A stretch of 64,000 bases of DNA, taken from assembly GCA_903937035.1 (NCBI GenBank), contig CAIZXS010000020.1, positions 3,443 through 67,442 on the forward strand. Reading direction: 5' to 3'. The stretch comes from an uncultured bacterium. Its GTDB lineage: Bacteria; Patescibacteriota; Minisyncoccia; Moranbacterales; UBA2206. The translations under genes were made by a program, and so were the position numbers. Numbering within the stretch: position 1 is the stretch's first letter; each line of letters opens with the position of its first letter. Below the pieces are notes generated by a model. That model was not told the DNA's origin. It worked only from the letters and a program-made list of their open reading frames with translations, and did no database searches. Shown piece by piece: positions 2,743 to 54,711 of the stretch.

Positions 2743-3183
2743 CTAAAGCCCCATCACCTGAACGATTATCTCCCTTGTCCTTGCACCATCCATTTCTGCC
2801 ATAAAGATATTTTGTTTTGCGGTAATCATCATATGCCCCTTTTCAATCGGCAAGGTTTCACTAATCCCGAGAAGCATCACTTTGCAATGTGAATGACCAT
2901 TGCTCCGACCATCGGATTTATTTTTCTTAGCTAGTTCAAATAGATCATGAGAATAACGATCTTCAACTGGTGCTATGCGACATAGGACGCGCATAAAATC
3001 CTGAATTAACATCGACTCATTATGATTAACAAAAATTCCTGTTGAAGTGTGTGGGGAATAAACAAGAACCGTTCCTTCTCTCACACCGGACAAACCAATA
3101 ATTTCTTCTACTTTACTTGTGATGTCTATTATTTCTATACTGCTAGAGCTTTTTATTTCGATTTTTTTGCGATAAATTTTCAT
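2743..3183 (-). CDS. YjbQ/UPF0047 family protein (secondary thiamine-phosphate synthase-like)
   Basis: YjbQ-like sequence (VYSPHTSTGIFVNHNE ... HMMITAKQNIFMAEMDG). ATG at 3183 (MKIYRKK) preferred over the TTG-initiated track start at 3216. Confidence 0.7.
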   Translation of the reverse strand: MKIYRKKIEIKSSSSIEIIDITSKVEEIIGLSGVREGTVLVYSPHTSTGIFVNHNESMLIQDFMRVLCRIAPVEDRYSHDLFELAKKNKSDGRSNGHSHCKVMLLGISETLPIEKGHMMITAKQNIFMAEMDGARTREIIVQVMGL

Positions 3184-5042: not shown

Positions 5043-5966
5043 CTATTTCAATTTAAGCATCTTATACGCCCCGTTCGCCGCCACAGCGCCTTCTGAACAG
5101 GCCGTTAAAATCTGGCGAAATTTATTTGATCCAGTTGTAATGTCCCCTGCTGCAAACACGCCCAACACATTCGTACTCATATCTGCATTCACTCTGATAA
5201 ATCCCTGTTCATCTGTTTCCACGCCCAGTCTTTGCGCCAATTCCACACCGGGATCCGATCCGATTTCCACAAAGACACCATCCACTTCGAGATACGTCTT
5301 GTCATTGTAGGTATTATCCAAAATTATTTTTTCCACTTTCTGCTCACCCTTGATTTCAATAATATTAGTATTTTTAATCACTTCGATTTTTGGGTTCGCC
5401 GCTATTTTATCCAGCCACACTGGTTCCGCTGGTAAACGGTCTCCGCGATAGACTAGATAAACTTTTGACGCAAAATCCGTAAGCCCTAAAGCTGATGTCA
5501 CCGCCGCGTTTCCTCCACCCACAACGCAAATGACTTTTTCTCGGAAAAACATCGCGTCACAAGTTGCGCAATATGAAACACCCTTGCCGGTCAGCTCCTT
5601 TTCTCCAGGAATATTCATCTTACGATACTCCGTTCCCATTGCCATAATCACAGCGCGCGCCTTGTGAGCATTTTTTCCTGTTTCAACTTCAAAAACATTT
5701 TCTTCATTTTTTTTCACAGAGACCACCGATTCGTTTTGTGGTGTAATTCCAAGGTTCTTAGTATGCTCCACAAACCGAGAAAGCAAATCAAGTCCCGAGA
5801 CAGACTTGTCCCCCGGCCAATTTTCCAATTGCCGTATTTCATTAATTTGCCCGCCAATCGTCGCGCCCAAAAGCAAATGATTGAGTTTATAACGCGAAGC
5901 GTAAATCGAAGCAGCAAGACCAGCTGGTCCCGCGCCAATAATAATTAAGTCGTATGTTTCTTGCAT
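5043..5966 (-). CDS. trxB: thioredoxin-disulfide reductase
   Basis: FAD motif DLIIIGAGPAGLAA, redox-active CATCD and NADPH-binding GGGNAA. ATG at 5966 (MQETYDLIIIG) preferred over the long track ORF to 6059. Confidence 0.9.
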   Translation of the reverse strand: MQETYDLIIIGAGPAGLAASIYASRYKLNHLLLGATIGGQINEIRQLENWPGDKSVSGLDLLSRFVEHTKNLGITPQNESVVSVKKNEENVFEVETGKNAHKARAVIMAMGTEYRKMNIPGEKELTGKGVSYCATCDAMFFREKVICVVGGGNAAVTSALGLTDFASKVYLVYRGDRLPAEPVWLDKIAANPKIEVIKNTNIIEIKGEQKVEKIILDNTYNDKTYLEVDGVFVEIGSDPGVELAQRLGVETDEQGFIRVNADMSTNVLGVFAAGDITTGSNKFRQILTACSEGAVAANGAYKMLKLK

Positions 5967-6192
5967 AATGATATTTTGAGAAATTCTATTTATATCCCCT
6001 TCTCCATTAGGGAGAAGGTGTACGAAGGGCGGATGAGGGAGAAACCTTTTGATAATCAACCAGCAATATTCATATAGCTTTTCTTTTTTATCAACGCCCT
6101 TTTTCCCTCACCTGTCACGAGTACGTGACATCCTCTCCCTAAGGGCGAGGAGAATATCTTAAGCGAGATAAATTAAAACTTAGACTGTTTAG

Positions 6193-6248
6193 ATGAAACT
6201 TGTTTCATGTTTCATGTTTCATGTTTCATGTTTCATGTTTCATGTTTT
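6193..6248. repeat. heptanucleotide microsatellite (TGTTTCA)x6 with inverted 5' copy
   Basis: atgaaac-t-tgtttca tgtttca tgtttca tgtttca tgtttca tgtttca tgtttt, immediately 3' of the trxA stop and 5' of trxB. Confidence 0.7.
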
Positions 6249-6561: not shown

Positions 6562-6701
6562 AAAAATATAACTTATCAATTGCAGTCTTTACTGCAAAGA
6601 ATAAGTGTTAATTAAAAAATTAAAACGTTACGTTGTTAGTCACTTGTTCACACATTCACATAAATTCGCCTGCCTGCCGGTAGGCAGGTAATTCGTAGGG
6701 A

Positions 6702-12147: not shown

Positions 12148-12207
12148 CCTGTCATGAAGTATGAAACATAAAACACGAAACAAAAAGGCTTGAGCCTAAT
12201 TCGTCCT

Positions 12208-12256
12208 ATGTTATATGCTTCATGTTATATGTTACATGTTATGCTACATGTATTTT
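12208..12256. repeat. imperfect tandem 12-14-bp repeats (ATGTTATATGYTWC x3)
   Basis: atgttatatgcttc / atgttatatgttac / atgttatgctac / atgtatttt sit 60-110 bp upstream of the smc start. Confidence 0.5.
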
Positions 12257-15926: not shown

Positions 15927-18900
15927 CTATTGAATCTCCCGCCATCCGCCAGAATTACAAGGGCAATAAATTGATCCCGTGCAGCTACTAGCGGTACACG
16001 GATCGGCACAGCCAGAACCAATTGGTGCTGATGATGTGCATGTTTGATATTTATTTCCACAAATTCCTGCGCTGCATGTAAGCGTAGCGGGAGAACACAG
16101 AGCGCCAGGACATGCGATATATTCGCAAGAACCACCTACATTGCAAGTACCAACTGGTCCCCAATTTTTTGCCACTGCCAATCCAGTCTCTATCGTACCT
16201 GGGCATTTGTAAAAACCTGGGGGTACCGACAACCCGCAATCAAATAATGCTGGTGGCGTATAGTACTCGCAATTTCCTCCTGAGATACAGCTAAGTGCAC
16301 TGGGTCCCACATTATGCCATGGATTAGCAACATTTGTCAGTGTGGCTGGACACATCATTGAGCCTGCAGGGATAGAGCCTGTGCAAGAAAGTGATGTTGT
16401 GCAAGTTGCATTCGTTGGATCAAGAGAATTGCGACACACACCCGTTTCATATGAATAAGGCGCAACTTCTCGTCCAAGAGAAGTGCTGTAACAAATTCCA
16501 TTGGGGATATTTCTACAGGCATAACTTTGATTATCCACATGCCAATAGTTCAAGCCACAGGGCTCATTACAGCTAGCAGCATCTTTACAAGTAGTGCTGT
16601 CCAAAACATTGCCGGTATTGCGACAATAACAAGTACTAGTTCCGTCGCAACCATCCATTCCACCATAACAATCCATAGGGTAACTGCACATAGATGTGTC
16701 AGTGCATGTGCCATTGCAAGGTTCTTTTGTTACGCAAGGGCTACATGTTGGATCACCAGTTCCATTGCAAGTCGTAATGCAACCAAAAATTGGATAACAA
16801 TCAAGACCGGCCTGACAGTCACTGTCAGTGGAACAAGCTCCGCGACAACCAGATGGTACGACTAGCGGAGTATAATACTCACACTTTCTTGGGTCCGAAC
16901 AACTCCCATATGAAGTTCCCACATATCGCCAAGGAATAACTACCGTCAATCCAGTGTCATCCCCCGGGCACATTATGGAATCAGCAGGAACAGATCCAGT
17001 ACATGCTGTCGACGGAACACAATTGCAACCATCACAAGTCGTCCCAGAAGGACAACTTCCACCACTGAAAACCAAGCTGCACGCACAGTTTTTCGTACAC
17101 ATCGTTCCATTCCAGGTATAACCAGCAGCAGTGTCACATTCATAGCAAGATGTTCCACCGCAACAAGTAGCGGAGGTCGTAATGCCATTAGTCAAAGACG
17201 CCATACAGCCAGGACCAGTGGAGCATGTGGCACTACAACAATTTTTGATCGAATAATCGATACTACCTTCGCCAATTTTGTCATAGTCCGCTGCCACATC
17301 ACTAACATAACCATGTTTAAAAGCATACGTAAATTTAGCTGAGTAATTTCCGCAAGTCCAACCACTGGTACTGAAATTATATGCACCAGCACTGATAGCG
17401 CCCTCGTTAGTGATATAGGACGAATTAATAATCCACTGCGCGGGGTTACTTCCTGTTGTTTGCACAACCATTCCCGTTGTCACGCCGTTATTGCAAATAT
17501 TGGCCCCGATTGAGAGGCCAGCAGCCTGAATGGTGGTCCCTTGATCAACAGAGCATCCGCTACTATTGCAACTGCCGCCGGAGCCATTATTCAAATTATA
17601 GGAGAACTGAACAATATCCCTATAACAACCATGAACTTTACCATCAACAGAATACCAATAAGCGTTATTATTACTAAATCTACACAGAGAGACAGACTGG
17701 TAGTCCACAGGGCACACTGGAGTGGCATCTAAGGTCGCCTGCGAAACTCCACAATTGAGCATACTAACAAACTGTGTCCCCGTCGCAGCAGATTCATCGA
17801 ATGTTTGCCAAAAAGAATCCCCCTCCAATACTGCCACCGATATCGCCCAGGACTGATTTGTCCATAAAAAAGAAGCTGCGAAAACCAAAAAGAAAATACC
17901 AGTCTTGGAAATATTTGCGATTCTCCACTTCTTCCAATGAAACCAATTCACGATTACCAATATTAAAACTAAAATTAAACCGATGATTACCACGAGAAAA
18001 TTATTTTTACCTTCCCGCTGAACAGCTGACTTAGCCTGCTCTTTTCCCGGCTCAGTCTTGATGATTTTTTCATATAAAAGCTGCCCTTCATTAATCAATT
18101 TAATGGTAACAATAGGATAGAGACAATCTTTTTCCATTGGAACAGTCAGGATGGTTTTAAATTCTCCGGTTTTCTGAGTTAATTTCCCACCACAAGAATT
18201 TCCCTTAACATCTCTAAATTCAACTTCAAAGCGAGGATCTTTTAAATAGCTTCCACCAGTCCGAGAATCACGAAAAGTGTCCGCCGATCCTGCCCATAGC
18301 AAAGCTAGCTGAGCATTCTCTCTTGCTTTATATTGATTTTTGTCGAGACTGGCATTGATAATGGTGCCGCTTTTGCCAGAAAGAACAAAGTGAGCGAAGA
18401 CTGGATTGGAAACAATTTTTCCCTCTTTCTTGAAAACAATCTTGGCATCATAGGCTTGAGGATTTTCCGGCAAACGAATAGCGAGCTTGACCAATTTTTC
18501 CTCATCCTTGTTGAAAGTAACGGCTTCGTTTTGCGATACTTCTAATTCTCCAGTTTTTCTCCCATAGAAATCTCTTTGATAGAATTCAACCGTGGGCAGA
18601 ACTGTCACGTCCTCTCCGATAAGATTTTTAATCTGACAGTTGAAAAAAAGTTTTTCTTCTTTTTTCAAATCCACTCCTTGACTCAGATTATATTTCTTGT
18701 CATTTTCTCCTTCAATTGTCAAATAGCACGAACTACTTTGCTCGATGAATTTTTTTGATCCAGCTAGATTGACATTGAACGATTGACCAGCCAAGACCAT
18801 TCCGCTTTCATCTTTAACTTTGAGCCAAAGAACAAAAACGCCATTCAAGTATTCTGGAGCTTGATAGATAATCTCTCGGCGAACTGACTTATTTTTTTCG

Positions 18901-19352
18901 ATTGTAATTTTATCTTCTGAAAAAATTTTGACATCCGCAAGGCTAGTCCCATTATTCTCTCCCTCTTTGAACAACTCCAAGCCATAAATCAAGTTGGATT
19001 GAAGTTCCATAGAATTATCCACATTGAAAACTAGCCTCAACTGATCCTTTTTTAATTCGCTTATTTCAGCATTGCTAATGTTAACATCAGCAATAATTTC
19101 GACTTTTGCCTTGGAACCATTTCCTATCTTAGTCAGATCATCAGCGGTCAGAATCTCCTCTGCGCTACCGCTCTCAACTGGCTTCGCCAACTCCTCAAAA
19201 ATAGCCTTAGTATCATCAACTGCCAAAGTAGTTTTTCCGGAGCACAATAAAATGATTACTAAAAAAACCGGGAGGACTAATTTATTTTTCATTTTGTTTT
19301 TTAAATTTAAATTAATTTTAACTACCCCAATTATTTTCAAACAATAGCACAT
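15927..19352 (-). CDS. large bipartite cysteine-rich surface protein, unknown function (paralogue of 12836..15796)
   Basis: Same architecture: signal peptide (probable start at internal MKNKLVLPVFLVIILLC), homologous N-terminal domain (YQAPEYLNGVFVLWL vs YVAPAYLSGNLQLWI; PQAYDAKIVF vs PQAYDAVVNL), TM segment FLVVIIGLILVLILVIV, second signal-like segment GIFFLVFAASFLWTNQSWA, and a ~640-aa Cys-rich region with repeated CPGDD/CP...W..VG...C.....CEY modules. Both proteins end in CPC.SG.W.E. Confidence 0.7.
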   Translation of the reverse strand: MCYCLKIIGVVKINLNLKNKMKNKLVLPVFLVIILLCSGKTTLAVDDTKAIFEELAKPVESGSAEEILTADDLTKIGNGSKAKVEIIADVNISNAEISELKKDQLRLVFNVDNSMELQSNLIYGLELFKEGENNGTSLADVKIFSEDKITIEKNKSVRREIIYQAPEYLNGVFVLWLKVKDESGMVLAGQSFNVNLAGSKKFIEQSSSCYLTIEGENDKKYNLSQGVDLKKEEKLFFNCQIKNLIGEDVTVLPTVEFYQRDFYGRKTGELEVSQNEAVTFNKDEEKLVKLAIRLPENPQAYDAKIVFKKEGKIVSNPVFAHFVLSGKSGTIINASLDKNQYKARENAQLALLWAGSADTFRDSRTGGSYLKDPRFEVEFRDVKGNSCGGKLTQKTGEFKTILTVPMEKDCLYPIVTIKLINEGQLLYEKIIKTEPGKEQAKSAVQREGKNNFLVVIIGLILVLILVIVNWFHWKKWRIANISKTGIFFLVFAASFLWTNQSWAISVAVLEGDSFWQTFDESAATGTQFVSMLNCGVSQATLDATPVCPVDYQSVSLCRFSNNNAYWYSVDGKVHGCYRDIVQFSYNLNNGSGGSCNSSGCSVDQGTTIQAAGLSIGANICNNGVTTGMVVQTTGSNPAQWIINSSYITNEGAISAGAYNFSTSGWTCGNYSAKFTYAFKHGYVSDVAADYDKIGEGSIDYSIKNCCSATCSTGPGCMASLTNGITTSATCCGGTSCYECDTAAGYTWNGTMCTKNCACSLVFSGGSCPSGTTCDGCNCVPSTACTGSVPADSIMCPGDDTGLTVVIPWRYVGTSYGSCSDPRKCEYYTPLVVPSGCRGACSTDSDCQAGLDCYPIFGCITTCNGTGDPTCSPCVTKEPCNGTCTDTSMCSYPMDCYGGMDGCDGTSTCYCRNTGNVLDSTTCKDAASCNEPCGLNYWHVDNQSYACRNIPNGICYSTSLGREVAPYSYETGVCRNSLDPTNATCTTSLSCTGSIPAGSMMCPATLTNVANPWHNVGPSALSCISGGNCEYYTPPALFDCGLSVPPGFYKCPGTIETGLAVAKNWGPVGTCNVGGSCEYIACPGALCSPATLTCSAGICGNKYQTCTSSAPIGSGCADPCTASSCTGSIYCPCNSGGWREIQ

Positions 19353-22235: not shown

Positions 22236-22439
22236 TGTCATTCCCGCGAAGGCGGCCTGCCTGCTGGTAGGCAGGGAATCCAGTCTCTAGGCCATAGCAA
22301 AAACGAGCATCGTCCTGATTGGCGATTCTTTGTTTGTAAAAATTCATTTTTTGCACCTATTTTCTCAGCTTATCAAAATACAAAGTTAGTAATTCTTACT
22401 AAGTCTTTACACTGGATCCCCGCCTGCGCGGGGATGACA
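22236..22439. repeat. GC-rich hairpin-pair composite element (MITE-like), copy 1
   Basis: Left end tgtcattcccgcgaaggcgg[cctgcctgctggtaggcagg]gaatccag (22236-22283); right end ctggatccccgcctgcgcggggatgaca (22412-22439) in inverted orientation. It fills the whole cysS/small-ORF to dus intergenic gap. Confidence 0.6.
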
Positions 22440-22452
22440 ATTTTTTATTTAT

Positions 22453-23671: not shown

Positions 23672-25033
23672 ATGGCAACAGCTGAAAACAAAGACTTGAA
23701 ACTTCCACCCCAAAACATCGACGCGGAAAAATCCGTGCTCGGTGCTTTAATGTTGGACAAAGACGCCATTATCCGTGTCGCTAACCTCGTACGCCTCGGT
23801 GATTTCTATAAAGACACACACAATCTGATCTATGAAACAATGATTGATCTCTATGAAAAGAGAGAGCCAATCGACGTACTCAGCCTTTCCAACCGTCTTG
23901 AAGAAAAGGGTCAACTTGACACTATTGGCGGATCAAGTTATCTTGCCACGTTAGTCAATACTGTTCCTTCAAGTTCGAATGTTTCTCACTACGCGAAAGT
24001 CGTACAAAAAAAATCAACACTGCGAAAATTAATTGAAACAGCCAGTGAAATTGTTGAGCTCGGCTATCATGAAGAAGAAGACGTGGATAAACTGCTTGAC
24101 GAAGCTGAGCAAAAACTTTTTGCTGTTTCGCAAAAGTACATCAAGCAAGATTTTGTGCCAATCCGTTCCATTCTGGAGGCAGCCTTCAATCGCATTGATG
24201 AGCTGCATAAAGGTGACCATCAGTTGCGAGGAATTCCGACTGGCTACACCGACCTCAATAATGTTCTCGCTGGTTTCCAAAAATCCGACCTCATCATTTT
24301 GGCAGCGCGTCCTAGTATCGGAAAATCCACTCTAGCCATGGACTTTGCCAGAAGCATTGCCGTGAAAGAAAAAATCGGTGTCGGTGTCTTTTCCTTGGAA
24401 ATGGGCGCTGATCAATTGATTGATAGGATGCTCGCCGCTCAATCAGGAGTGGACTTGTGGCGTTTACGCACGGGTCGCCTCAAAACTGGCGATGGTGATG
24501 ACGACTTCCAGCGAATCGGCGAAGCAATGGGAGTGCTTTCAGAGGCGCCAATTTTCATTGATGACTCTGGTTCTGCCAACATTATGGAAATTCGCACCAT
24601 GGCAAGGCGCCTTCAAATGGAACATAATGTTGGGATGATTATTATTGACTACCTGCAACTTATGGAAGGTCGCTCATCTAGTGGCGATAACCGCGTCAAT
24701 GAAATTTCCGAAATATCTCGCTCCCTAAAACAGCTAGCCCGTGAACTCAACATCCCCGTTATTGCCCTCTCGCAACTCTCCCGTAACGTCGAATCACGCA
24801 GTCCGCAAATTCCAAAGCTATCCGACTTGCGTGAATCTGGTTCGATTGAGCAGGACGCTGACATCGTGCTATTCCTCTATCGTGAAGACCGTGAAAAACC
24901 AGACACTCCTAATAAAAATATCGTCGAGGTTCACATCGCCAAACACCGCAACGGTCCCGTTGGGAAAATATCCCTCTATTTCGATGAGTCATCCGCAACC
25001 TTTAAATCACTGGAACGAGTGCATACGGAATAG
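23672..25033 (+). CDS. dnaB: replicative DNA helicase DnaB
   Basis: DnaB N-terminal domain, Walker A (GARPSIGKST), and the H2, H3 and H4 motifs. Confidence 0.95.
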   Translation: MATAENKDLKLPPQNIDAEKSVLGALMLDKDAIIRVANLVRLGDFYKDTHNLIYETMIDLYEKREPIDVLSLSNRLEEKGQLDTIGGSSYLATLVNTVPSSSNVSHYAKVVQKKSTLRKLIETASEIVELGYHEEEDVDKLLDEAEQKLFAVSQKYIKQDFVPIRSILEAAFNRIDELHKGDHQLRGIPTGYTDLNNVLAGFQKSDLIILAARPSIGKSTLAMDFARSIAVKEKIGVGVFSLEMGADQLIDRMLAAQSGVDLWRLRTGRLKTGDGDDDFQRIGEAMGVLSEAPIFIDDSGSANIMEIRTMARRLQMEHNVGMIIIDYLQLMEGRSSSGDNRVNEISEISRSLKQLARELNIPVIALSQLSRNVESRSPQIPKLSDLRESGSIEQDADIVLFLYREDREKPDTPNKNIVEVHIAKHRNGPVGKISLYFDESSATFKSLERVHTE

Positions 25034-25165
25034 CCTAAAAATCCAAAGCCCAAATGACAAATGTCAATTCAAATCAAAAGTTCAAATATCAAATTTTCTA
25101 TTTTTGCATTTTGTCATTTGATATTGATTTGAAATTTGGATTTTGAAATTTGAAATTTATAGCAT
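25034..25165. repeat. long AT-rich imperfect palindrome (aaatttcaaa / tttgacattt family), copy A
   Basis: aaatccaaagcccaaatgacaaatgtcaa ... ttttgtcatttgatattgatttgaaatttggattttgaaatttgaaattt, between dnaB and recR. Confidence 0.5.
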
Positions 25166-25759
25166 ATGTATCCCAAATCTTTCAAAAAACTAATCGACAA
25201 CTTCGCGGCTTTGCCCTCCATCGGTCCTAAAATGGCCGAACGCTTGGTATTGTATTTATTCAAAGAAGATAATCAAAAATTATCTGAGTTTGCCAAAAGC
25301 CTTGAGGATTTCAAGAAGAATCTTCGTCACTGTAAAAAATGCTGGAATATCAGCGAAGAAGAATATTGCTCAATTTGCAAAGATAGCTCACGCGATCAAG
25401 CCACAATTTGCGTCGTAGAAGATGCACTGGATGTTTTTGCGATCGAAAAAACTAAAAAATATAACGGCATATACCATGTTCTCGGCGGAGTGCTTAACCC
25501 AACAAGAACCGTCGGATCGGACAATTTGCATTTCAAGGACTTGGAAAATAGAGCTGAAAAAGAAGAAATCAAAGAAGTGATTCTAGCCATGAATCCAACC
25601 ACAGAAGGCGACGCCACAGCGCTCTATATCACCAGAAACCTAAAAGATAAAGGCGCGAAGATTACCCGCCTCGCAAGGGGCCTCGCCACTGGCGCTGACA
25701 TTGAACATGCGGATGAGCTAACACTCAGTTCGTCTCTTGCCAATAGGAGGGAAGTTTAA
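25166..25759 (+). CDS. recR: recombination protein RecR
   Basis: C4 zinc finger CKKCWNISEEEYCSIC and a Toprim domain. Confidence 0.9.
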   Translation: MYPKSFKKLIDNFAALPSIGPKMAERLVLYLFKEDNQKLSEFAKSLEDFKKNLRHCKKCWNISEEEYCSICKDSSRDQATICVVEDALDVFAIEKTKKYNGIYHVLGGVLNPTRTVGSDNLHFKDLENRAEKEEIKEVILAMNPTTEGDATALYITRNLKDKGAKITRLARGLATGADIEHADELTLSSSLANRREV

Positions 25760-26976: not shown

Positions 26977-27000
26977 TTAATTATGATAGACCGCCATATT

Positions 27001-27158
27001 TGTCATTCCCGCGAAGGCGGGAATCCAGGCTCCACTAGTTATAAATTACAAACAATCAAGTTATAAATCCCCTAACTTCTTATTATCAACCAGTAAATTC
27101 TGTTTTTCTTTTTCTTAAAACCTGAGGTGCCTGGATCCCCGACTTCTCGGGGATGACA
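27001..27158. repeat. GC-rich hairpin-pair composite element (MITE-like), copy 2
   Basis: tgtcattcccgcgaaggcgggaatccag (27001-27028) ... ctggatccccgacttctcggggatgaca (27131-27158), between rluB and ispH. Confidence 0.6.
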
Positions 27159-27195
27159 CGGAAGAGAGAATCGCACTAAAAGATTAAACTCTACC

Positions 27196-28559: not shown

Positions 28560-29646
28560 ATTCTTTAATTGACCTATTAATTTCAGCTAAAATTTTAGCA
28601 TTATCCTCTTTTGGATATTGTTCCAAATTTATCTGATACTCAGAAATTTTATCCAAAAAATCATTAATCACTCGCATGGTCATTTTTTCACAAAACACAC
28701 CATAACCCATCTTTTCTAAATAATAGGCATTAATAATTTGCTCAAAATGATTTTTGAGTGGAATCGCGAAATAGGGTTTTCCCAAATATAGTGCTTCGCT
28801 GATGAGACCAAAACCAGCGTTAGCGATAATTCCTCGGCACCGGCACAAATCATCCAAAAATCCTTCCTGGCTAGGCTTTTTGTAAACTATATTTTTTTCA
28901 CGTCCCACTCTTCCTAGACCATAGACAATAAATTGGCAATCAATCCCTTTTAAATATTCCACAGCGCCCTCAAAACCTGCTGTCAGATAAACTAGAATAT
29001 AATCCTCTGTAGTAGGTTTTAGTGCAAGAATTTCTTTTCGTAAAATTGGAGAAAACAGGAGGACTTTTTTATTAATTATCCGCTCTTTTACAAAAGTAAG
29101 GGCAAGATATTTCTTCGCATTAGGCACGAATAGCTGGACAAAGGCATTGGTCATCAAAGCCTCCTTTGCATATTTTTTCGGATATTCTATCGCCGTTCCC
29201 GAAATGAAATGTTGATTGTCAATTGAGATAAGCGGAATGCGATTAGTTCTCGCCGCCACCGCGCAAGTTGGCTCAAAATCAGTGATTATAATATTTGGTC
29301 TAAACTCCTTCACGAGCCTATCAACATCAACATAACTTCCCAATATTTCTTTCAGCTTTTTACCATTTTTGATAAATGTCTCAATATACTTAACCTGATT
29401 ATTCTCAAAACTAAACCCAAGTCCTTCAATTTCCATAACGTCAAACAACAGACTCAAGCTTTTATATCCCCGATCATATGACACTACCCTTACTTGGTGA
29501 CCAACTGAAAGCAAATAATTTATAATTTCTTTTGCTCGCATCGCGTGGCCAGTTCCCTCTCCCGCTACGCCATAAAGAATTTTAGCCATAAGTATTATTG
29601 CTTTAAAAGAAGATCGCTTGTAACAGCCAACTCCGTTCTCTTCCAA
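28540..29646 (-). CDS. GT28-family glycosyltransferase (MurG/MGDG-synthase-like)
   Basis: N-terminal GVAGEGTGHAMR glycine-rich motif and C-terminal GT-B nucleotide-binding region. The start may be the internal MAKILYG. Confidence 0.65.
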   Translation of the reverse strand: MEENGVGCYKRSSFKAIILMAKILYGVAGEGTGHAMRAKEIINYLLSVGHQVRVVSYDRGYKSLSLLFDVMEIEGLGFSFENNQVKYIETFIKNGKKLKEILGSYVDVDRLVKEFRPNIIITDFEPTCAVAARTNRIPLISIDNQHFISGTAIEYPKKYAKEALMTNAFVQLFVPNAKKYLALTFVKERIINKKVLLFSPILRKEILALKPTTEDYILVYLTAGFEGAVEYLKGIDCQFIVYGLGRVGREKNIVYKKPSQEGFLDDLCRCRGIIANAGFGLISEALYLGKPYFAIPLKNHFEQIINAYYLEKMGYGVFCEKMTMRVINDFLDKISEYQINLEQYPKEDNAKILAEINRSIKEYGTINR

Positions 29647-40396: not shown

Positions 40397-40432
40397 ATTA
40401 TTATTCCAAAACTCGTGTGCTCAAAATTAAAC

Positions 40433-40572
40433 TGTCATCCTGAGCGAAGTCCTGTACTCAGGGCGAAGCCGAAGGATCTGCCCACTAAAACCTCAAGCTT
40501 TACAAATATAAATAAGATCCGATTAACCCAGAGCAGATTCTTCGACTCCGCTACGCTCCGCTCAGAATGACA
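40433..40572. repeat. GC-rich hairpin-pair composite element (MITE-like), copy 3
   Basis: tgtcatcctgagcgaagtc[ctgtactcagggcgaag]ccgaaggatc (40433-40478) ... gattcttcgactccgctacgctccgctcagaatgaca (40536-40572), between rlmN and ogt. Confidence 0.6.
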
Positions 40573-40586
40573 AAAAGAGTTTAGTT

Positions 40587-46988: not shown

Positions 46989-47019
46989 GAGACGAGCCCG
47001 CCGGCTGGCGGGCTCGTCT
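46989..47019. other. perfect 12-13-bp GC-rich hairpin upstream of the por operon
   Basis: agacgagcccgcc-ggct-ggcgggctcgtct. A second hairpin agacgag-acaatgc-ctcgtttct at ~47060-47083 shares the same stem sequence. Confidence 0.5.
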
Positions 47020-47097
47020 TAGCGCTATTGACTTACCGCCCTAACATTGTATGTTTTTTAGACGAGACAATGCCTCGTTTCTACAATTATTGCCAAA

Positions 47098-47128
47098 CTA
47101 AAAAAAGACGCCCTGGCAGGACGTCTTC
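47098..47128 (-). terminator. intrinsic terminator downstream of the DsbA-like gene
   Basis: Minus strand aagacg-tcctgccaggg-cgtctt followed by ttttttt. Confidence 0.6.
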
Positions 47129-48822: not shown

Positions 48823-48853
48823 ACAAAAAAGCGCTACAACTTGCGCTTTTTTA
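48823..48853. terminator. bidirectional intrinsic terminator after the efflux cluster
   Basis: aaaaaa-gcgc-tacaactt-gcgc-tttttt. Confidence 0.55.
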
Positions 48854-48878: not shown

Positions 48879-50132
48879 CTAATCCTTGCGTAAAGCCTCC
48901 ATCGGACTTAAACGCGAAGCCGTGCGGGCAGGATAATAGCCAAAAATTACGCCTGTGGCGACAGAAAAACTAACTGCGAGACTAATCGCATTAGCACTAA
49001 GATTAAAATTAATAGGAAAACCAAAAGAAGCAGATGCATAGGAAAGAACCAGGAGCAAAAAATAACCCAAAATAATTCCGACCATTCCGCCAAAAAAAGT
49101 GATGAAAATTGCTTCCCAAAGAAACTGGCGTAAGATATTTTTCGACTTAGCCCCAACAGCTTTTCGCAAGCCAATCTCAAATGTCCGCTCCGCCACAGCC
49201 ACATACATCACATTCATAATTCCCACTCCACCTACAATCAAAGAAATTGAAGTAAGCGCCAAAAGCAAAATATTGATCGTTTTGAAAACTTTTTCAATCG
49301 TCGCTTGCGCTTCCTTGATCGAGGTCACGCCAAAATCATCTTTGTTGGGATCGGTGATTTTATGTAAACGGCGCATCTCTGCGGTGAGCTCAGCTGAGGT
49401 CACATCGATCAATTTTTCATTGCTCACCTTGACCATAATAAAACGGATGTAGTTGATGCCGAGAATCTTTTTTTGCATCGTCTGGACTGGGATATAGATG
49501 AGATCATCATAGTTAAAACCAGCCACCGCTCCCCGCTCACCAGCCAGTCCGACCACTTTGTAGTTTTGATTATTGATGCGAATGTTTTTTCCTAACGGAT
49601 TATCGTCACCAAAAAAAGCCTCTCGGATATTGCTACCGATAACCGCCACTTGCGCCAGACTTTCATCATCACTCTGTGAAAAAAATGCACCTTCGGTCAA
49701 TTTAGTGTTTTGATCAATTTGATTATATTGCGCGCCAACACCAAACAAAAAAACTCGCTTATTAGTATTTTGATAGCTCGCCAGTTCTTGTGTCATTGTT
49801 CCTGAAGCATAGGCTGCGATATTAGGCACTTTGCTGATTTCTTTCGCGTCGTCAATCGTCATGGTTGTGATTTGAATGCCCGACGCCTGACCAACGGCAT
49901 TTTGGGTTGAGGCTTTGCCGGTAGCGGGCACTTTTACTTCAATCTGAATCAGATCTGTGCCAAAAGCACCCACTTGACTCAAGATAAATCCCTTAACCCC
50001 CTGCCCGAGAGAACTAACTAGAATAACAGCAATCACTCCAATCACAACCCCGACCAAAGTCAAAATTGTTCGTCCCATATTAGAGCGAAGATTTTTAAAA
50101 GCTAATTTAATTGAGACTACTAGCTCATGCAT
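48879..50132 (-). CDS. ABC transporter permease (MacB/FtsX family)
   Basis: MacB_PCD-like periplasmic domain between TM1 and a C-terminal FtsX triple-TM bundle. Confidence 0.8.
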   Translation of the reverse strand: MHELVVSIKLAFKNLRSNMGRTILTLVGVVIGVIAVILVSSLGQGVKGFILSQVGAFGTDLIQIEVKVPATGKASTQNAVGQASGIQITTMTIDDAKEISKVPNIAAYASGTMTQELASYQNTNKRVFLFGVGAQYNQIDQNTKLTEGAFFSQSDDESLAQVAVIGSNIREAFFGDDNPLGKNIRINNQNYKVVGLAGERGAVAGFNYDDLIYIPVQTMQKKILGINYIRFIMVKVSNEKLIDVTSAELTAEMRRLHKITDPNKDDFGVTSIKEAQATIEKVFKTINILLLALTSISLIVGGVGIMNVMYVAVAERTFEIGLRKAVGAKSKNILRQFLWEAIFITFFGGMVGIILGYFLLLVLSYASASFGFPINFNLSANAISLAVSFSVATGVIFGYYPARTASRLSPMEALRKD

Positions 50133-50313
50133 GTTCTATAATATAAAAACCAATTAAAAATGATGCACCCCTTAATTTCAAAATCCTAATGCCAAATTTC
50201 CAATCAACCTCAAAATTCAAAGCTCAAAATATTTTTTGACATTTGGATTTTTAATTTTGTTTGACATTGGAAATTTGAGCTTTGAAATTATCTTGGATTT
50301 GGATTTAGCAATT
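50133..50313. repeat. long AT-rich imperfect palindrome, copy B
   Basis: ttaatttcaaaatcctaatgccaaatttccaa...aaattcaaagctcaaaat // ttgtttgacattggaaatttgagctttgaaatt. Shares 17-25-nt blocks with copy C. Confidence 0.55.
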
Positions 50314-51555
50314 TTACTCGTATCTCAGCGCCTCCATCGGGCTTATCTTTGAAGCTTTGCGAGCAGGATATATTCCAAAAATTAGGCCGATGGCAACAGA
50401 GACTGAAGTTGCGAGAAATATGGCGCTAAGAGTAATAATAAATTCCCAATCATATCCGAGACTTTTAATAATTACTGCGGCCAAGAACGCCACTAAAATA
50501 CCAAAAATTATGCCAAAAATCCCCCCCATCAGTGTGATAAAAATTGACTCAATGAGAAACTGCGAAATAATATGGATATTTTTTGCTCCAACTGCCTTCC
50601 TAAGTCCCACCTCTCTTACTCGCTGATGGACAGAAATAAGCATAATATTCATGATGCCCACGCCACCCACAATAAGTGAAATAGCAGCCACAGCAGCCAA
50701 GAAATATTTCAAAACATTTGTCACGGTTGTGAGCGTTTCAATCGCTTGAGCACTATTTCTTACAGAAAAATCGTCACTCGCATCTGCCCTTATTTTGTGT
50801 TGCTCACGCAAAGTTTTTTTCACATCAATAACGGCACGTTCTAAGTTATCTTTGGAATCAACCTTTATCCGCATAAAATTGATGTAATCAATTCCCAAAA
50901 GTAATTTTTGACCACTAAAAAGAGGAACGTAAATCATATTATCAGTATTGGAAAATCCAACTGAACCACGTTCAGCTAGAACGCCCACAACAGTAAAATT
51001 TGTGTCTTTCAAGGTAATTGTTTTTCCAATCGGATCAACATTTGGAAAAAGATCATGCACTCTATTGGACCCGAGAACTGCCACGTGTGCCAAATTTGTA
51101 TCTTCCTCTTTAATAAAAAATCGGCCGGATTTTAGCTTTATGTCCTCGACGCCCAAGAGGCTAGCAGTAACTCCTTGATAACTAGTTTGATATGAGCCAT
51201 TCTTATTCTTCAGCGTCGCAGAACCTGTCACGTAGGCCACAGCGTCTACCAAGCTTGGCACATTTCTTTTTTCTTGTAGAGCTTTAAGATCGGCGTATTT
51301 CAGAGTCGTCACAACGATTCCCATGGCTGATGCCGGCGGCCCCTCCTCTTCTGACGCTCCCGGCAAAACTCCAATTAGATTTGATCCAACGCCAGAAACT
51401 TGATTTAGAATAAGTTTTTGAGCACTTCCACCGATTGCCATCACCACAATCACGGAAGCAATTCCAATTATGATCCCCAGAATCGTCAAAAAAGAACGGA
51501 GCTTGGCCGCTACTAAATTTTTGTAGGAAATTTTAATTGGAGAAAGGATATTCAT
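50314..51555 (-). CDS. ABC transporter permease (MacB/FtsX family, paralogue)
   Basis: Same architecture as 48879..50132. Confidence 0.8.
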   Translation of the reverse strand: MNILSPIKISYKNLVAAKLRSFLTILGIIIGIASVIVVMAIGGSAQKLILNQVSGVGSNLIGVLPGASEEEGPPASAMGIVVTTLKYADLKALQEKRNVPSLVDAVAYVTGSATLKNKNGSYQTSYQGVTASLLGVEDIKLKSGRFFIKEEDTNLAHVAVLGSNRVHDLFPNVDPIGKTITLKDTNFTVVGVLAERGSVGFSNTDNMIYVPLFSGQKLLLGIDYINFMRIKVDSKDNLERAVIDVKKTLREQHKIRADASDDFSVRNSAQAIETLTTVTNVLKYFLAAVAAISLIVGGVGIMNIMLISVHQRVREVGLRKAVGAKNIHIISQFLIESIFITLMGGIFGIIFGILVAFLAAVIIKSLGYDWEFIITLSAIFLATSVSVAIGLIFGIYPARKASKISPMEALRYE

Positions 51556-51687
51556 AAATCAAAATGGAAAAATCAAAAATCAAAATGACAAAGCAAAATT
51601 AAAAATGAGTTTTAGCAATTTTGTATTTTACATTGTCATTTTCCCTACCTACCGGCAGGCAGACATTTTGAGCTTTGATTTTTCCAT
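51556..51687. repeat. AT-rich palindrome, copy D, plus degenerate GC hairpin
   Basis: caaaatgacaaagcaaaatt ... attttgtattttacattgtcatttt, followed by cctacctaccggcaggcag (related to the inner hairpin of element copy 1). Confidence 0.45.
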
Positions 51688-52416
51688 TTACTTTAATAGT
51701 TCCTTCTCTCCATCCGCAATCCGCCTATGCTTCACCGGATCATCTGCAATAATACTACCATCCTTAACATAGATTATTCTTTTTGCATGTTCGGCAGTAT
51801 ACGTCTCATGTGTAACCAAAATTACGGTATGCCCAGAATCATTTAATTTCTGTAAAATTTTCATCACTTGAAGCCCTGACTTTGAATCCAGATTTCCTGT
51901 TGGCTCATCAGCAAAAATCACCTCTGGATCATTGACTAGGGCTCTTGCTATTGCCACGCGCTGTTTTTCCCCACCAGACAATTGGTTGGAAAAATATTGT
52001 GCCCGATGTTCCATGTCAACAGCATTAAGGGCATCCATCACTTTTTTGGCATTGCTTTTATTTGGCTTTTCATCATAAAGCAAGGGAAGCTCGACATTTT
52101 CGAATACTGTCGTTCTGGACAGCAAATTAAAAGACTGAAAGACAAAGCCAATTTTTCTATTCCTAATCCTAGCCAAAGTATCATCATCAAATGTGAAAGT
52201 ATCTTTGCCTTCGAAAAAATATTTCCCCTCCGTCGGCCGATCCAGAAATCCCAAAATTTGCATCAAAGTTGATTTACCAGAACCTGATGGGCCCATAATA
52301 GAAATGAACTCACCTTTTTCAATTTCAAATGTCGCGCCACAAAGCGCCCGCGTTTCCACACCGTCATTAGAATAGGTCTTGCAAAGATTTCTAACTTGAA
52401 TTAGGGGGTTTGACAT
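51688..52416 (-). CDS. ABC transporter ATP-binding protein (MacB/LolD-type)
   Basis: Walker [10 protein letters not shown], signature [15 protein letters not shown], Walker [13 protein letters not shown]. Confidence 0.9.
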
Positions 52417-52491
52417 AAAAAATGATTAGACTATCATAGAATACAAGAAGCTGGTTCCTTTTTAAAACGCTTATTCGAAAGGAAGATGCCC

Positions 52492-52746
52492 ATGATATTC
52501 AAAACAGATACAATACTTTGCAGTTTGGCAAAATGCGAAAAATGCATTTACCGAAAAAATTGCGGTAGGACTTTTGAAGCGTGCAAGGGTAAATTTTTTT
52601 TCCCTGCATACTGCGGATATTGCACTAATGAAACAGGTAGTGGATGCTCAAAAAATCTGAGTATCTACAATCTTGACTCACCTCCAGATTGCTGGGATTT
52701 TTTTCCAAAAACAGTTTGGGGCGTAACAGTTGGCGCAAGAATTTAA
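52492..52746 (+). CDS. small cysteine-rich protein (84 aa) encoded antisense within the efflux cluster
   Basis: AGGAAG RBS 6 nt before ATG 52492; 11 Cys (CEKCIYRKNCG...CKGKFFFPAYCGYCTNETGSGC); own hairpin terminator; no signal peptide. Confidence 0.4.
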   Translation: MIFKTDTILCSLAKCEKCIYRKNCGRTFEACKGKFFFPAYCGYCTNETGSGCSKNLSIYNLDSPPDCWDFFPKTVWGVTVGARI

Positions 52747-52760
52747 GCTCCCACTCCGCC

Positions 52761-52810
52761 GAAAAGCATGCAGTATGTCAGCGAACATACATAAGCCATG
52801 CTTTCTTTTT
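52761..52810. terminator. bidirectional hairpin terminator shared by the small Cys-rich ORF (+) and the HlyD-family gene (-)
   Basis: aaagcatg-ca-gtatgt-cagcga-acatac-ataagc-catgcttt-cttttt. Confidence 0.5.
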
Positions 52811-52812
52811 AT

Positions 52813-54111
52813 TTAAATCGCTTTTGTAAAAGTAACGACTTTGTCACCATTTTTTAAGCCAGATTTTGCCTCAACCATCCCCCCATCACCCTCAAGTCCA
52901 GTGGTAATTTTCACTTCTTGGACCAAATTATTATCACTCAAAACATCCACAAATTTCTCTCCATTTCTGATTTTAATGGCTCTAAGAGGAATCATAAGCA
53001 CATCACCTTTTTCATTGGTCCGCACATCAACATTGGCACTCATTCCTGGCTTCAACCTCAAATCAATTGTGGAAAGTTTCAACTTAATCCCATAATAAAC
53101 TACGTCTTGAATAACAGTTTCAGCTGGATTAATTTCAATGAGCTCTGCCTCGAATTCATCGCCAGTTGGCAGCGCATCAAAAGTAACTTTGGCTTTTTGA
53201 CCAAGCTTTAGTTTCACAATATCCGACTCGGGAATATTAGACTCAATAATAAAATCATCAGCAATAATCCGCGCAAAGGATTCTTTAATCACGCCGGTAC
53301 CCAAAATTTCTCCCACCTTATTATTCACTTCCACGATTGTGCCAGAAACCGGTGCTTTGAGCACGGCTTTCGAGAGATTATTGAGCGCAATCTCATAATT
53401 GGCTTTGGCGTTGTCCACCGAGGCGTTCTTGGAATTGAGCGTGAAATCCGATTCAGTCGTTTTCAATCTAGCTTTCGCCGCGTCCAAAGAATTCTCCGCC
53501 GAAGTAATCGCCAAATCGCGAGATTTTTTAGCAGTATCCAATGCTTCCTCGGCCGCTTTCTTGCTGTTTAGGGCCGTAGTCAAAGTCAACTTATTATTCT
53601 TGGTCGGGCTGTCATTATAAAAATCCAACGCGTCAGAATAATAGTCCTTGGCATTATCGAGTGCCGTCTCCGCCGCGTCAACTCTTTGTTTTTCCAACTT
53701 CTCTGTTTCATCCAAAAAATTATCAGCATTATCCACCGCCACGTCTGATTCACGGATTGCATCATTATTTGATCCAGCATCGGCCACCGCTTTGTTGAGT
53801 GTTGCCTTCGCTACCGCGACTTGACCGGACAGATTGACATTGTCAAGCATCGCGATTGAATCACCCGCAGCTACCTTGTTGCCTTTTTTAATGAAGACTT
53901 TGCTAATTCTTCCACCCAATTCGAAATTAAGCACGATCTCAGAGTCATCCTTTAAATCCCCGGTCGCTGAAACAGTTTGCGATAGATTTCCTTTTTCCAC
54001 CGTTGCGGTCGTATATTCAACTTTGGGTTTTTTGGATTTGGAATAGAAAAAATAGCCTCCGGCAACAAACAAGATTAGGACAAATATGATGGTTTTTTTG
54101 TATCTAAACAT
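52813..54111 (-). CDS. HlyD-family efflux periplasmic adaptor (MacA-like)
   Basis: N-terminal TM, coiled-coil hairpin, beta-barrel and MP domain motifs. Confidence 0.8.
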   Translation of the reverse strand: MFRYKKTIIFVLILFVAGGYFFYSKSKKPKVEYTTATVEKGNLSQTVSATGDLKDDSEIVLNFELGGRISKVFIKKGNKVAAGDSIAMLDNVNLSGQVAVAKATLNKAVADAGSNNDAIRESDVAVDNADNFLDETEKLEKQRVDAAETALDNAKDYYSDALDFYNDSPTKNNKLTLTTALNSKKAAEEALDTAKKSRDLAITSAENSLDAAKARLKTTESDFTLNSKNASVDNAKANYEIALNNLSKAVLKAPVSGTIVEVNNKVGEILGTGVIKESFARIIADDFIIESNIPESDIVKLKLGQKAKVTFDALPTGDEFEAELIEINPAETVIQDVVYYGIKLKLSTIDLRLKPGMSANVDVRTNEKGDVLMIPLRAIKIRNGEKFVDVLSDNNLVQEVKITTGLEGDGGMVEAKSGLKNGDKVVTFTKAI

Positions 54112-54279
54112 GAGTTTTTAATTTCAAAATCCTAATTTCAAATGTCAAATCAATGCCAAAATCCAAATAACAAAATAATTCTAGTGGCTTACTTTTTTGG
54201 ATTTTGTTTGACATTGGAAATTGGAAATTTGGAATTATTATCGAATTGATTCAACATTAGGATTTTTAAATTTCATAGT
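54112..54279. repeat. long AT-rich imperfect palindrome, copy C
   Basis: Outer arms ttaatttcaaaatcctaat / attaggatttttaaatttcat; inner arms caaatgtcaaatcaa...aaaatccaaa / tttggattttgtttgacattgg. Confidence 0.55.
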
Positions 54280-54711
54280 TTACATTAAAATCCCTTGCTT
54301 TTTCTGTCCATCCAACGCTTCATTCACCAGCGCATCCGCAATGGTATTTTTCTCCCTAGGTATATGATAAAACCTAACTGATTTAAAATCAAGCATAAGA
54401 TTCCAAATTTCAATAAAATTCTTTTGAATATATTCCTCTTTCAATTTATACTCGTGATTCAATTGTTTTACAACCAATTCTGAATCTAAACGACATTCAA
54501 TCTCATATTGTCGCGTCTTATCCTTGCCTAAAAGTTGCTTTAGCTTTTTCAGTCCAAATATGAGCGCAGCGTATTCAGCGACATTATTTGTTGCAATGCC
54601 AATGCATTCGCCATATTTTTTGTCTAATGTTTCTACCCAAACACCAATTCCCGCCGGTCCGGGATTGCCCCTTGATCCACCATCGGTATAAATTACGATT
54701 TTATTTGACAT
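54280..54711 (-). CDS. rnhA: ribonuclease HI
   Basis: IYTDGGSRGNPGPAGIGV and DEDD catalytic residues. Confidence 0.9.
   Translation of the reverse strand: MSNKIVIYTDGGSRGNPGPAGIGVWVETLDKKYGECIGIATNNVAEYAALIFGLKKLKQLLGKDKTRQYEIECRLDSELVVKQLNHEYKLKEEYIQKNFIEIWNLMLDFKSVRFYHIPREKNTIADALVNEALDGQKKQGILM

Follow-up and report, generated by a model that had tools for sequence, protein, structure and literature searches.

What are the long AT-rich palindromes that fill several of the gaps between genes in a 64-kb stretch of DNA from a Candidatus Moranbacteria bacterium, a member of the candidate phyla radiation (CPR), and do they serve the genes that they separate? Three of them lie in or beside an operon that encodes an HlyD-family membrane-fusion protein (MFP), an ABC transporter ATPase, and two MacB-type permeases: element A (positions 54112–54279, 168 bp) at the RNase H/MFP junction, element B (51556–51687, 132 bp) at the ATPase/permease 1 junction, and element C (50133–50313, 181 bp) at the permease 1/permease 2 junction. 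Element D (25034–25165) separates dnaB and recR, two plus-strand genes. A sequence-only reading of this single stretch, the window to which all window counts below refer, had left a choice between RNA stability hairpins, operator sites, and an AT-rich family of miniature inverted-repeat transposable elements (MITEs). With moderate confidence, we interpret the four gaps as copies of a multi-copy, non-coding, hairpin-forming family of selfish repeats, which resembles MITEs, the hairpin doublets of repetitive extragenic palindromic (REP) sequences called REPINs, and the intervening sequences (IVSs) of rRNA, and not as regulators of the efflux pump.

Architecture and Kinship of the Four Palindromes

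The limits of the four gaps coincide exactly with the ends of open reading frames (ORFs), and their GC content is 23–29% compared with ~40% for the window. They lack coding capacity, with 15–24 stop codons per gap and no ORF longer than 35 aa, and they account for 4 of the 31 window gaps of at least 50 bp in having this AT-palindrome make-up. As the sequence-only reading held, with exact coordinates, each of the four contains an imperfect palindrome that folds better than its shuffles, the RNA fold z-scores relative to dinucleotide shuffles being −4.8 for A, −6.1 for B, −2.7 for C, and −2.2 for D. The main arms of A (54119–54161 and 54195–54237) are 43 nt long and 79% complementary. Those of C (50173–50229 and 50234–50290) are 57 nt long and 70% complementary, and this palindrome is accompanied by a 40-nt non-palindromic tail (50133–50172). 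In B the arms are nested, with 51564–51587 pairing with 51664–51687 (92%) and 51582–51606 pairing with 51618–51642 (84%), and D has several arms of 17–20 nt that are 80–88% complementary. Six independent assemblies of the same species (L001–L006, 99.98–100% identical) carry the elements, which are therefore not an assembly artefact.

Similarity explained by AT-richness alone had been set beforehand as the outcome that refutes a repeat family. Local alignment of the gaps, scored against 300 shuffles, finds similarity beyond base composition (A–C, z = 24.5; A–D, z = 10–11.5; C–D, z = 12–13), and for element B only the similarity to D is significant (z = 5–7.6). A and C have exact blocks of 19 and 21 nt in common, which occur at 50172/54118 and 50255/54202 only and for which ~0.01 chance matches are expected; the shared blocks quoted in the sequence-only reading are thus exact, but they belong to the gaps that begin at 54112 and 50133 and not to the one that begins at 51556. 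The 9-mers common to the elements occur nowhere else in the 64 kb. Judged by these alignments, A, C, and D are clearly homologous and B is a weaker relative with a second sub-vocabulary (AAATCAAAATGACAAA / ATGGAAAAATCAAA). The proposed recurrence of the palindromes after dnaB is borne out by the homology of D to A and C (z = 10–13), although the fold of D is marginal.

The arms are tandem arrays of 7-nt words, with words of the form "...CAAA" in the 5′ arm, which is rich in A and C and has little G, and complementary "TTTG..." words in the 3′ arm, which is rich in T and G and has little C. A lag of 7 nt gives the strongest autocorrelation in each of the four elements (z = 4.4–6.9; 4.9 in A and 6.9 in D), and Tandem Repeats Finder reports period-7 arrays of words such as ATTGGAA, ATTTGAA, and TCAAAAA, including 4.6 copies of ATTTGAA in D. 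In the pooled set of elements described below, 216 of the 368 distances from one CAAA to the next measure 7 nt among the matches listed. One-directional heptamer repeats are also found in other gaps of the window (6203–6246 and 12200–12250; CATGTTT ×6 and ATGTTAT-like units), which adjoin a thioredoxin gene and a gene for a 143-aa protein of unknown function; heptad slippage is thus seen outside the palindromes.

This architecture invites comparison with two kinds of array. Cooperative binding to arrays of 7-bp heptads is a property of the omega repressor, and the strict 7-bp repeat, the conserved CAAA core with a variable remainder, the converging arrays, and the frequent TTGACA-like words would suit operators or centromere-like sites for a cooperatively binding protein. 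We nevertheless regard this explanation as most improbable, because the flanking genes have no common function, the elements are missing in close relatives, no candidate binding-protein gene is adjacent, no sense-strand sigma-70-like promoter is found in gaps A, B, or C, and the family spans phyla and phages. Arrangements of the form TTGACA-N17-GAAATT that looked promoter-like by eye were inconsistent between copies and were dropped. The more specific proposal of operator sites for the efflux cluster is disfavored, given that members of the family are also found between dnaB and recR, at unrelated junctions of other phyla, and among phages.

The second comparison is with the Tas-associated TIGR arrays and with integron attC sites, to which we assign next to no probability. 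TIGR arrays are AT-rich, poorly conserved, and known from CPR bacteria and phages; they are defined by one-directional tandem units of ~36 nt with two alternating 8–12-nt repeats, 9-nt spacers, and box C/D motifs. We rejected them given that each element is a single palindrome with a periodicity of 7 and not 18 or 36 nt (the autocorrelation at lags 18 and 36 does not rise above that of shuffled sequence, either for the pooled set or for any single window element) and that no Nop-domain tas gene is adjacent or elsewhere in the 64-kb window. The attC sites are imperfect palindromes of 60–140 bp between co-directional ORFs and are similar to one another within a genome. This candidate was likewise rejected, since neither strand of any of the four gaps contains a pair of R″ (RYYYAAC) and R′ (GTTRRRY) sites; in addition, the flanks are syntenic core genes and not cassettes, and no integrase is encoded in the window.

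Orthologous Junctions in Related Genomes

The orthologs of permease 1 place the organism in Candidatus Moranbacteria. We compared the three efflux junctions with those of eleven orthologous loci, for which percentages give the identity of permease 1 to that of the window. In L131 (91%), junction A holds an 89-bp palindrome in the B-type vocabulary of the window (score 78), junction B an 80-aa ORF, and junction C a DUF559 gene. L007 (90%) has a 162-bp palindrome of AATTTCT words at A, a PF05635 gene between inverted arms at B, and a 159-bp palindrome at C. L132 (89%), the only genome with window-vocabulary copies at orthologous positions, has 143 bp of this vocabulary at A, a PF05635 gene with arms in the same vocabulary at B, and 82 bp of it at C. 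L008 (89%) combines 172 bp of GC-rich hairpins at A and a 105-bp unrelated palindrome at B with only 8 bp at C. In L242 (88%) there is no gap at A, where the ORF calls overlap, and 5 and 9 bp separate the genes at B and C; L243 (88%), L244 (87%), and L134 (87%) have 4, 13, and 6 bp at A, B, and C, and L133 (87%) has a different upstream gene context at A, an 80-aa ORF at B, and 6 bp at C. L009 (81%) has 9 bp at A, a 96-bp unrelated palindrome at B, and 143 bp of AATTTTC words at C, its dnaB/recR junction being 9 bp, and L010 (78%) has 50, 46, and 13 bp.

A wider set of MacB loci was taken from a metagenome scan, which among the matches listed contains only relatives that are at most 66% identical, and was reused as an unselected control. 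In the 68 MacB loci so obtained, both permease 1 junctions are most often shorter than 30 bp, and ~10% contain AT-rich palindromes. Given the junctions of 4–13 bp in relatives and the prevalence of tight junctions among MacB loci, we conclude that the ancestral operon was tightly packed and that the palindromes are insertions.

The copies group by genome and not by locus: A and C align with a score of 108 in the window and 118 in L007, compared with 30–32 for orthologous positions across genomes. The L132 copy at junction A aligns to element A of the window better when inverted (118 vs. 84). The comparison shows elements that were inserted in tight junctions and then gained, lost, replaced, inverted, and partly homogenized within a genome over short evolutionary distances.

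Two alternatives bear on these junctions. In the first, the palindromes have a local and non-mobile origin, in which AT-rich spacers grow by heptad slippage and template switching at the quasi-palindrome keeps the arms complementary. The arms are indeed tandem heptads of variable copy number, the window and L132 versions of C have a common core and differ in their outer heptads, other heptad repeats occur in the window, and the number of heptamers in the Coxiella IVS varies (PMC4990558). Slippage alone, however, cannot produce exact blocks of 19 and 21 nt that are 4 kb apart or homology at a distance of 25 kb; the same sub-vocabulary is present at different junctions in different genomes, in phage contigs, and in distant phyla, and the empty sites of 4–13 bp offer no seed. 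We consider a local origin distinctly unlikely.

In the second, the hairpins are REP-like RNA elements maintained by selection, which set differential mRNA stability, processing, or translation between the cistrons of the efflux and dnaB–recR units. The location of the elements inside transcription units, ahead of a conserved terminator, would suit this view, as would folds that are better than those of shuffles, stems that abut stop and start codons, and the conservation of the C core, which exceeds that of neutral sites. However, none is present at any of the three junctions in relatives that are 87–88% identical, and these empty junctions make a selected function in the efflux operon unlikely; the occupant of a given junction varies between genomes, and one orthologous copy lies in the inverted orientation. 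Stability does not differ between the sense and antisense folds (mean difference of −0.2 kcal/mol, p = 0.81, n = 29), a search for selection on the sense-strand RNA through G–U asymmetry gave no signal, and the family extends to unrelated junctions, other phyla, and phages. The suggestion of REP-like stability hairpins in the sequence-only reading may thus hold at the RNA level, but as a selected function it is unlikely, in view of the relatives that lack the elements and the equal stability of sense and antisense folds.

The core of C is identical at 65 of 71 positions (92%) between the window and L132, compared with ~0.5 identity at flanking third codon positions. This indicates either constraint on the element or its more recent acquisition or homogenization. 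We also observed that region 48879–54711 of the window is a mosaic relative to L132, in which segments of ~95% identity (~0.88 at third positions) alternate with segments of ~79% (~0.5), C lying in a diverged part; the pattern suggests recombination between lineages within the operon.

Several genes lie at or near the same sites in relatives. The 80-aa ORF at the ATPase/permease 1 junction is conserved between L131 (6755–6997) and L133 (6755–6997) and has a hydrophobic C-terminus. Small genes of nuclease-fold or phage type (DUF559, GIY-YIG, KilA-N, and PDDEXK_3) have been inserted in and around the operon in relatives (L131, 8293–8516; L007, 21130–21242; L133, 10348–11009). A gene of ~200 aa with a faint match to the Y1 transposase family (PF01797) follows permease 2 in L134 (9537–10139), L243 (7537–8133), and L244 (7537–8133); it adjoins the operon only in relatives with empty junctions.

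PF05635 and PDDEXK_3 Genes between Heptad Arms

Small PF05635 or PDDEXK_3 genes lie between inverted arms of repeated short words in L007, L132, L027, L117, and L051, and the arms use the vocabulary of the window in L132, L027, and L117. Across all fetched loci, the median inverted-repeat score of the flanks is 30 for 12 PF05635/PDDEXK_3 genes and 12 for 1,452 control ORFs; 9 of the 12 genes exceed the 95th percentile of the controls (Mann–Whitney p = 4e-6). A viral search for PF05635 genes returned one locus. By comparison of their arms, the same architecture, and in sister genomes the same vocabulary, is shown to bracket PF05635 and PDDEXK_3 genes. The ATPase/permease 1 junction is a recurrent target; we observed at this junction in a relative that is 59% identical a truncated PF05635 gene followed by heptad repeats (L136, 4707–4947).

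PF05635 is the family of the protein encoded in IVSs of 23S rRNA. In the 23S IVS of Coxiella, RNase III cleaves the terminal inverted repeats, the loop contains a PF05635 ORF, and the tandem heptamers vary (PMC4990558); 23S genes of CPR bacteria are reported to have short insertions without an ORF at IVS sites (PMC11270868). The elements are like the IVSs of Coxiella burnetii, Leptospira, and Salmonella in that terminal inverted repeats form a long stem, a PF05635 (S23p) ORF may be present or absent in the loop, tandem heptamers of variable copy number lie beside the ORF, and the distribution is sporadic, for which reason IVSs are regarded as selfish; hosts tolerate IVSs because, at the level of RNA, the stem is removed or held together by RNase III (PMC4990558; PMC11270868). 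The window elements differ from IVSs in that they are flanked by protein-coding genes instead of interrupting helix 25 or 45 of the 23S rRNA; none of them contains an ORF, and their stems exceed the 28-bp stem of Coxiella in length but pair less perfectly. There is no rRNA gene in the window.

Distribution across Bacteria and Phages

Scanning species-representative genomes with the 19-mer end block common to A, C, and D returned at least 120 stretches. A word-based detector was then run on ~973 kb that comprised the window, the orthologous loci, and the scan matches, and it found 44 elements among the matches listed, nearly all of them in the scan matches. Within the same scope, the vocabulary occurs in Omnitrophota, Thermodesulfobacteriota, Syntrophaceae, Calditrichota, Cloacimonadota, Brocadiales, many CPR lineages, and others. 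Phage contigs contain 9 elements in 246 kb. There are ~0.5 elements per 100 kb in the 586 kb of unselected DNA, and the window, with 4.7 per 100 kb, is enriched about ten-fold. We also observed that phage copies are flanked on both sides by AAGGAGGAA, one copy of which is the Shine–Dalgarno sequence of the downstream gene (L220, ~720–880; L223, ~2130–2290; L234, ~2920–3080; L240, ~5500–5660); this could be a target-site duplication.

Among 33 elements with callable neighbors, 29 lie between co-directional, 3 between divergent, and 1 between convergent genes (background of 67, 17, and 16%; Fisher p = 0.012). The median distance of the stem from the preceding stop codon is 9 nt, and that from the following start codon is 10 nt. 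The elements have a strong polarity, the CAAA arm coming first in 44 vs. 1 cases among the matches listed, in 3 vs. 0 in the 586 kb of unselected DNA, and in 9 vs. 0 in phage contigs. As proof of function this polarity is weakened by the weaker bias of unrelated AT palindromes (15 vs. 5), and part of it may be due to the common descent of the family members.

Polarity is also what would be expected of bidirectional terminators or insulators, in which an A-rich 5′ arm and a U-rich 3′ arm around a hairpin stop transcription from both sides. The elements are like bidirectional intrinsic terminators in that the A-rich 5′ flank, hairpin, and T-rich 3′ flank are read on both strands and in that some copies have a GC-rich center, and the unrelated AT palindromes share the polarity weakly. 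Elements A, C, and D, however, have neither a GC-rich stem nor a following T-run, and a terminator scan finds no canonical terminator in the four gaps, although the genome has such terminators at the ends of transcription units, including a conserved one after permease 2. The elements are instead found inside operons, they are rarer than expected between convergent genes (1 of 33, with 16% expected), and the junctions that they split are tightly coupled in relatives. We therefore consider a terminator role very unlikely.

Comparison with Known Repeat Classes and Points against Mobility

The option of an AT-rich MITE family in the sequence-only reading is the best fit to the multi-copy, non-coding nature of the elements, their presence and absence among relatives, their clustering by genome, and their occurrence in other genomes and phage contigs. 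As in MITEs, the elements are short and non-coding, the 64 kb contain four of them, each is over its entire length an inverted repeat with arms that are 70–92% complementary, and the junctions that measure 132–181 bp in the window measure 4–13 bp where they are empty in L008, L009, L010, L133, L134, and L242–L244. Correia elements of Neisseria and palindromic elements of Rickettsia are likewise 100–200 bp long, multi-copy, and bounded by inverted termini, and are often co-transcribed with their neighbors; the RNA hairpin of the Correia element is cut by RNase III. Unlike in bacterial MITEs, no target-site duplication is recognizable in the low-complexity flanks and no parent insertion sequence was found in the 64-kb window, each element is in its entirety a low-complexity heptad palindrome, the class spans phyla and phages, and the copies lie almost exclusively in spacers that separate a stop codon from the ribosome-binding site or start codon of the next gene. 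The only relatives of the elements that bear an ORF carry PF05635, which is not a known transposase.

REPINs and REP sequences mobilized by REP-associated tyrosine transposases (RAYTs) are also non-coding extragenic hairpin doublets of ~100 nt whose copies are most alike within a genome (PMC3116915). The arms of the elements, unlike those of REPINs, are tandem heptad arrays and not a single REP of 20–40 bp, and the REP head GTAG or CGTC (motif: PMC3733652) is absent from A, C, and D and occurs in B only within a nested GC-rich hairpin. This hairpin (ccctacctaccggcaggcagac, 51643–51664), at the center of B, belongs to a separate small family of GC-rich palindromes, with near-identical units at ~6680–6700 of the window and in L007 and L038, and a central GC-rich hairpin is present in some copies of the AT family (window B, L085, and L038).

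Several observations weigh against a mobile, selfish repeat family. No transposase, RAYT, or PF05635 gene is found in the 64-kb window, and no polymorphism for the elements is seen within the population represented by the six assemblies, which are 99.98–100% identical. No target-site duplication is clear in comparisons of filled with empty sites, in which A/T low-complexity flanks would hide short ones. The sharing of vocabulary across phyla arises partly by construction, because the set was retrieved with a 19-mer from the window. The strong conservation of the C core could mean selection for a function in the host. The palindromes that the sequence-only reading called long do have long stems of 34–54 pairs, but these are poor, with a longest perfect helix of only 10–15 bp and a marginal fold in D, and cleavage by RNase III is consequently not assured.

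A Proposed Model of Co-Transcribed Hairpin Cassettes

Given this evidence, we suggest that the ORF-less palindromes are most simply a miniature form of an "IVS-like" hairpin cassette and that they are probably mobile. They are probably co-transcribed with the flanking genes, given that the conserved canonical terminator is found only after permease 2. An AU-rich stem whose base is ~10 nt from both the upstream stop codon and the downstream start codon would keep the cistrons close together, and this may matter in a genome in which the junctions are tight where they are empty and only 4 of the 59 window genes have a Shine–Dalgarno-like motif. By analogy with rRNA intervening sequences, the stem is also a plausible substrate of RNase III. 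Stem geometry and RNase III processing would explain how insertions are tolerated at tightly coupled junctions.

A broader proposal is that heptad palindromes, whether or not they enclose a PF05635 or PDDEXK_3 gene, form one class of mobile "hairpin cassettes," in effect intervening sequences of mRNA, which target the spacer between stop and start codons, travel between phyla with phages, and are tolerated since their stem is cut by RNase III or folded away. In this proposal mobility or maintenance would depend on a bAvd-like four-helix-bundle protein, with the ORF-less copies as non-autonomous derivatives. We offer it tentatively, as a speculation that is on the unlikely side.

Genomic Setting and Other Features of the Window

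The majority of genes in the window are on the minus strand, including all those that flank A, B, and C. Element A is preceded by the RNase H gene (54280–54711; Pfam: RNase_H/RVT_3) and followed by the MFP gene (52813–54111; HlyD_D23 and HlyD_3). The ABC transporter ATPase gene (51688–52416; ABC_tran) lies upstream of B, permease 1 (50314–51555; MacB_PCD and FtsX) between B and C, and permease 2 (48879–50132; MacB_PCD and FtsX) downstream of C. On the plus strand, D is preceded by dnaB (23672–25033; DnaB and DnaB_C) and followed by recR (25166–25759; RecR domains). The location of the palindromes inside the efflux cluster, as put forward in the sequence-only reading, is correct for B and C but not for A, which is at the upstream edge of the cluster between the RNase H and MFP genes. 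Nor do the palindromes fill every intergenic gap of the cluster: the 396-bp MFP/ATPase gap (52417–52812) has none, and the gap that follows permease 2 is occupied by a canonical terminator with a GC-rich stem and T-tract (48824–48853, minus strand), which ends the transcription unit that contains B and C and the sequence of which is also found in L007, L008, and L010.

The MFP/ATPase gap contains a hairpin after the MFP stop codon, an opposite-strand ORF, and a conserved promoter-like box immediately 5′ of the ATPase ATG. The ORF (52486–52746, plus strand), which is antisense to the cluster, would encode a Cys-rich protein of 86 aa; ORFs at the equivalent position in relatives are 15–25% identical. 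It is probably not a real gene, given its poor conservation and the MFP/ATPase spacer of only 7 bp in L242. Many window genes have a TAnAnT box 6–10 nt 5′ of the ATG, for example tgatagtctaat before the ATPase gene, which is conserved in relatives. These boxes, in combination with the scarcity of Shine–Dalgarno motifs, suggest from sequence patterns that leaderless or near-leaderless mRNAs are widespread in this organism.

GC-rich hairpins are a further feature of the gaps. A palindrome of ~20 nt (cctgcctgccggtaggcagg) occurs both free-standing and nested inside AT palindromes, here and in other Patescibacteria, and might be a GTAG-type REP given that it contains GGTAGG. Other gaps of the window (6090–6160, 22400–22450, 26990–27190, 40420–40580, and 46990–47120) contain further families of GC-rich hairpin repeats (e.g., gtcattcccgcgaaggcgggaatcc; tgtcatcctgagcgaag...cgctcagaatgaca; cctctccctaagggcgaggag). 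In L008 (7272–7443) and L007 (5957–6274), GC-rich hairpins are found at junctions that hold AT palindromes in the window.

Two adjacent large ORFs on the minus strand, at 12836–15796 (986 aa) and 15927–19352 (1,141 aa), have no Pfam match, and region 28560–29594 is a TTG-initiated gene of 368 aa and not an ORF-free stretch.

Novelty and Significance

In the window only tRNAs exceed the Rfam gathering threshold, and a sensitive Rfam scan returned a single 23-bit match to a plant miRNA hairpin with a gathering score of 102. The elements have no blastn match in annotated phage and plasmid collections, and we found no description of them in the literature searched, in Rfam, or in those collections. 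By type they belong, as a variant, with known selfish hairpin repeats such as MITEs, REPINs, and IVSs. What appears to be new is the heptad-array architecture, the niche in stop/start spacers, and the occurrence in many phyla and in phages, combined with the explicit tie to PF05635 cassettes.

If this interpretation is correct, the finding is not about efflux regulation but about a widespread and apparently undescribed group of selfish hairpins in CPR bacteria, other uncultivated bacteria, and phages. In practical terms, such elements lengthen intergenic distances and can mislead the prediction of operons, terminators, and small RNAs in metagenome-assembled genomes. The interpretation predicts RNase III cuts in polycistronic mRNAs, a preference for stop/start spacers, and binding of PF05635 proteins to the heptad arms. 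It would also tie ORF-less intergenic palindromes to the abundant and enigmatic genes annotated as PF05635 "23S rRNA IVS protein" and to the classical rRNA IVSs, the origin and mobility of which have been unexplained for ~35 years. A class of hairpin cassettes, if real, would unify the 23S rRNA IVSs with a larger and unnoticed intergenic population in uncultivated bacteria.

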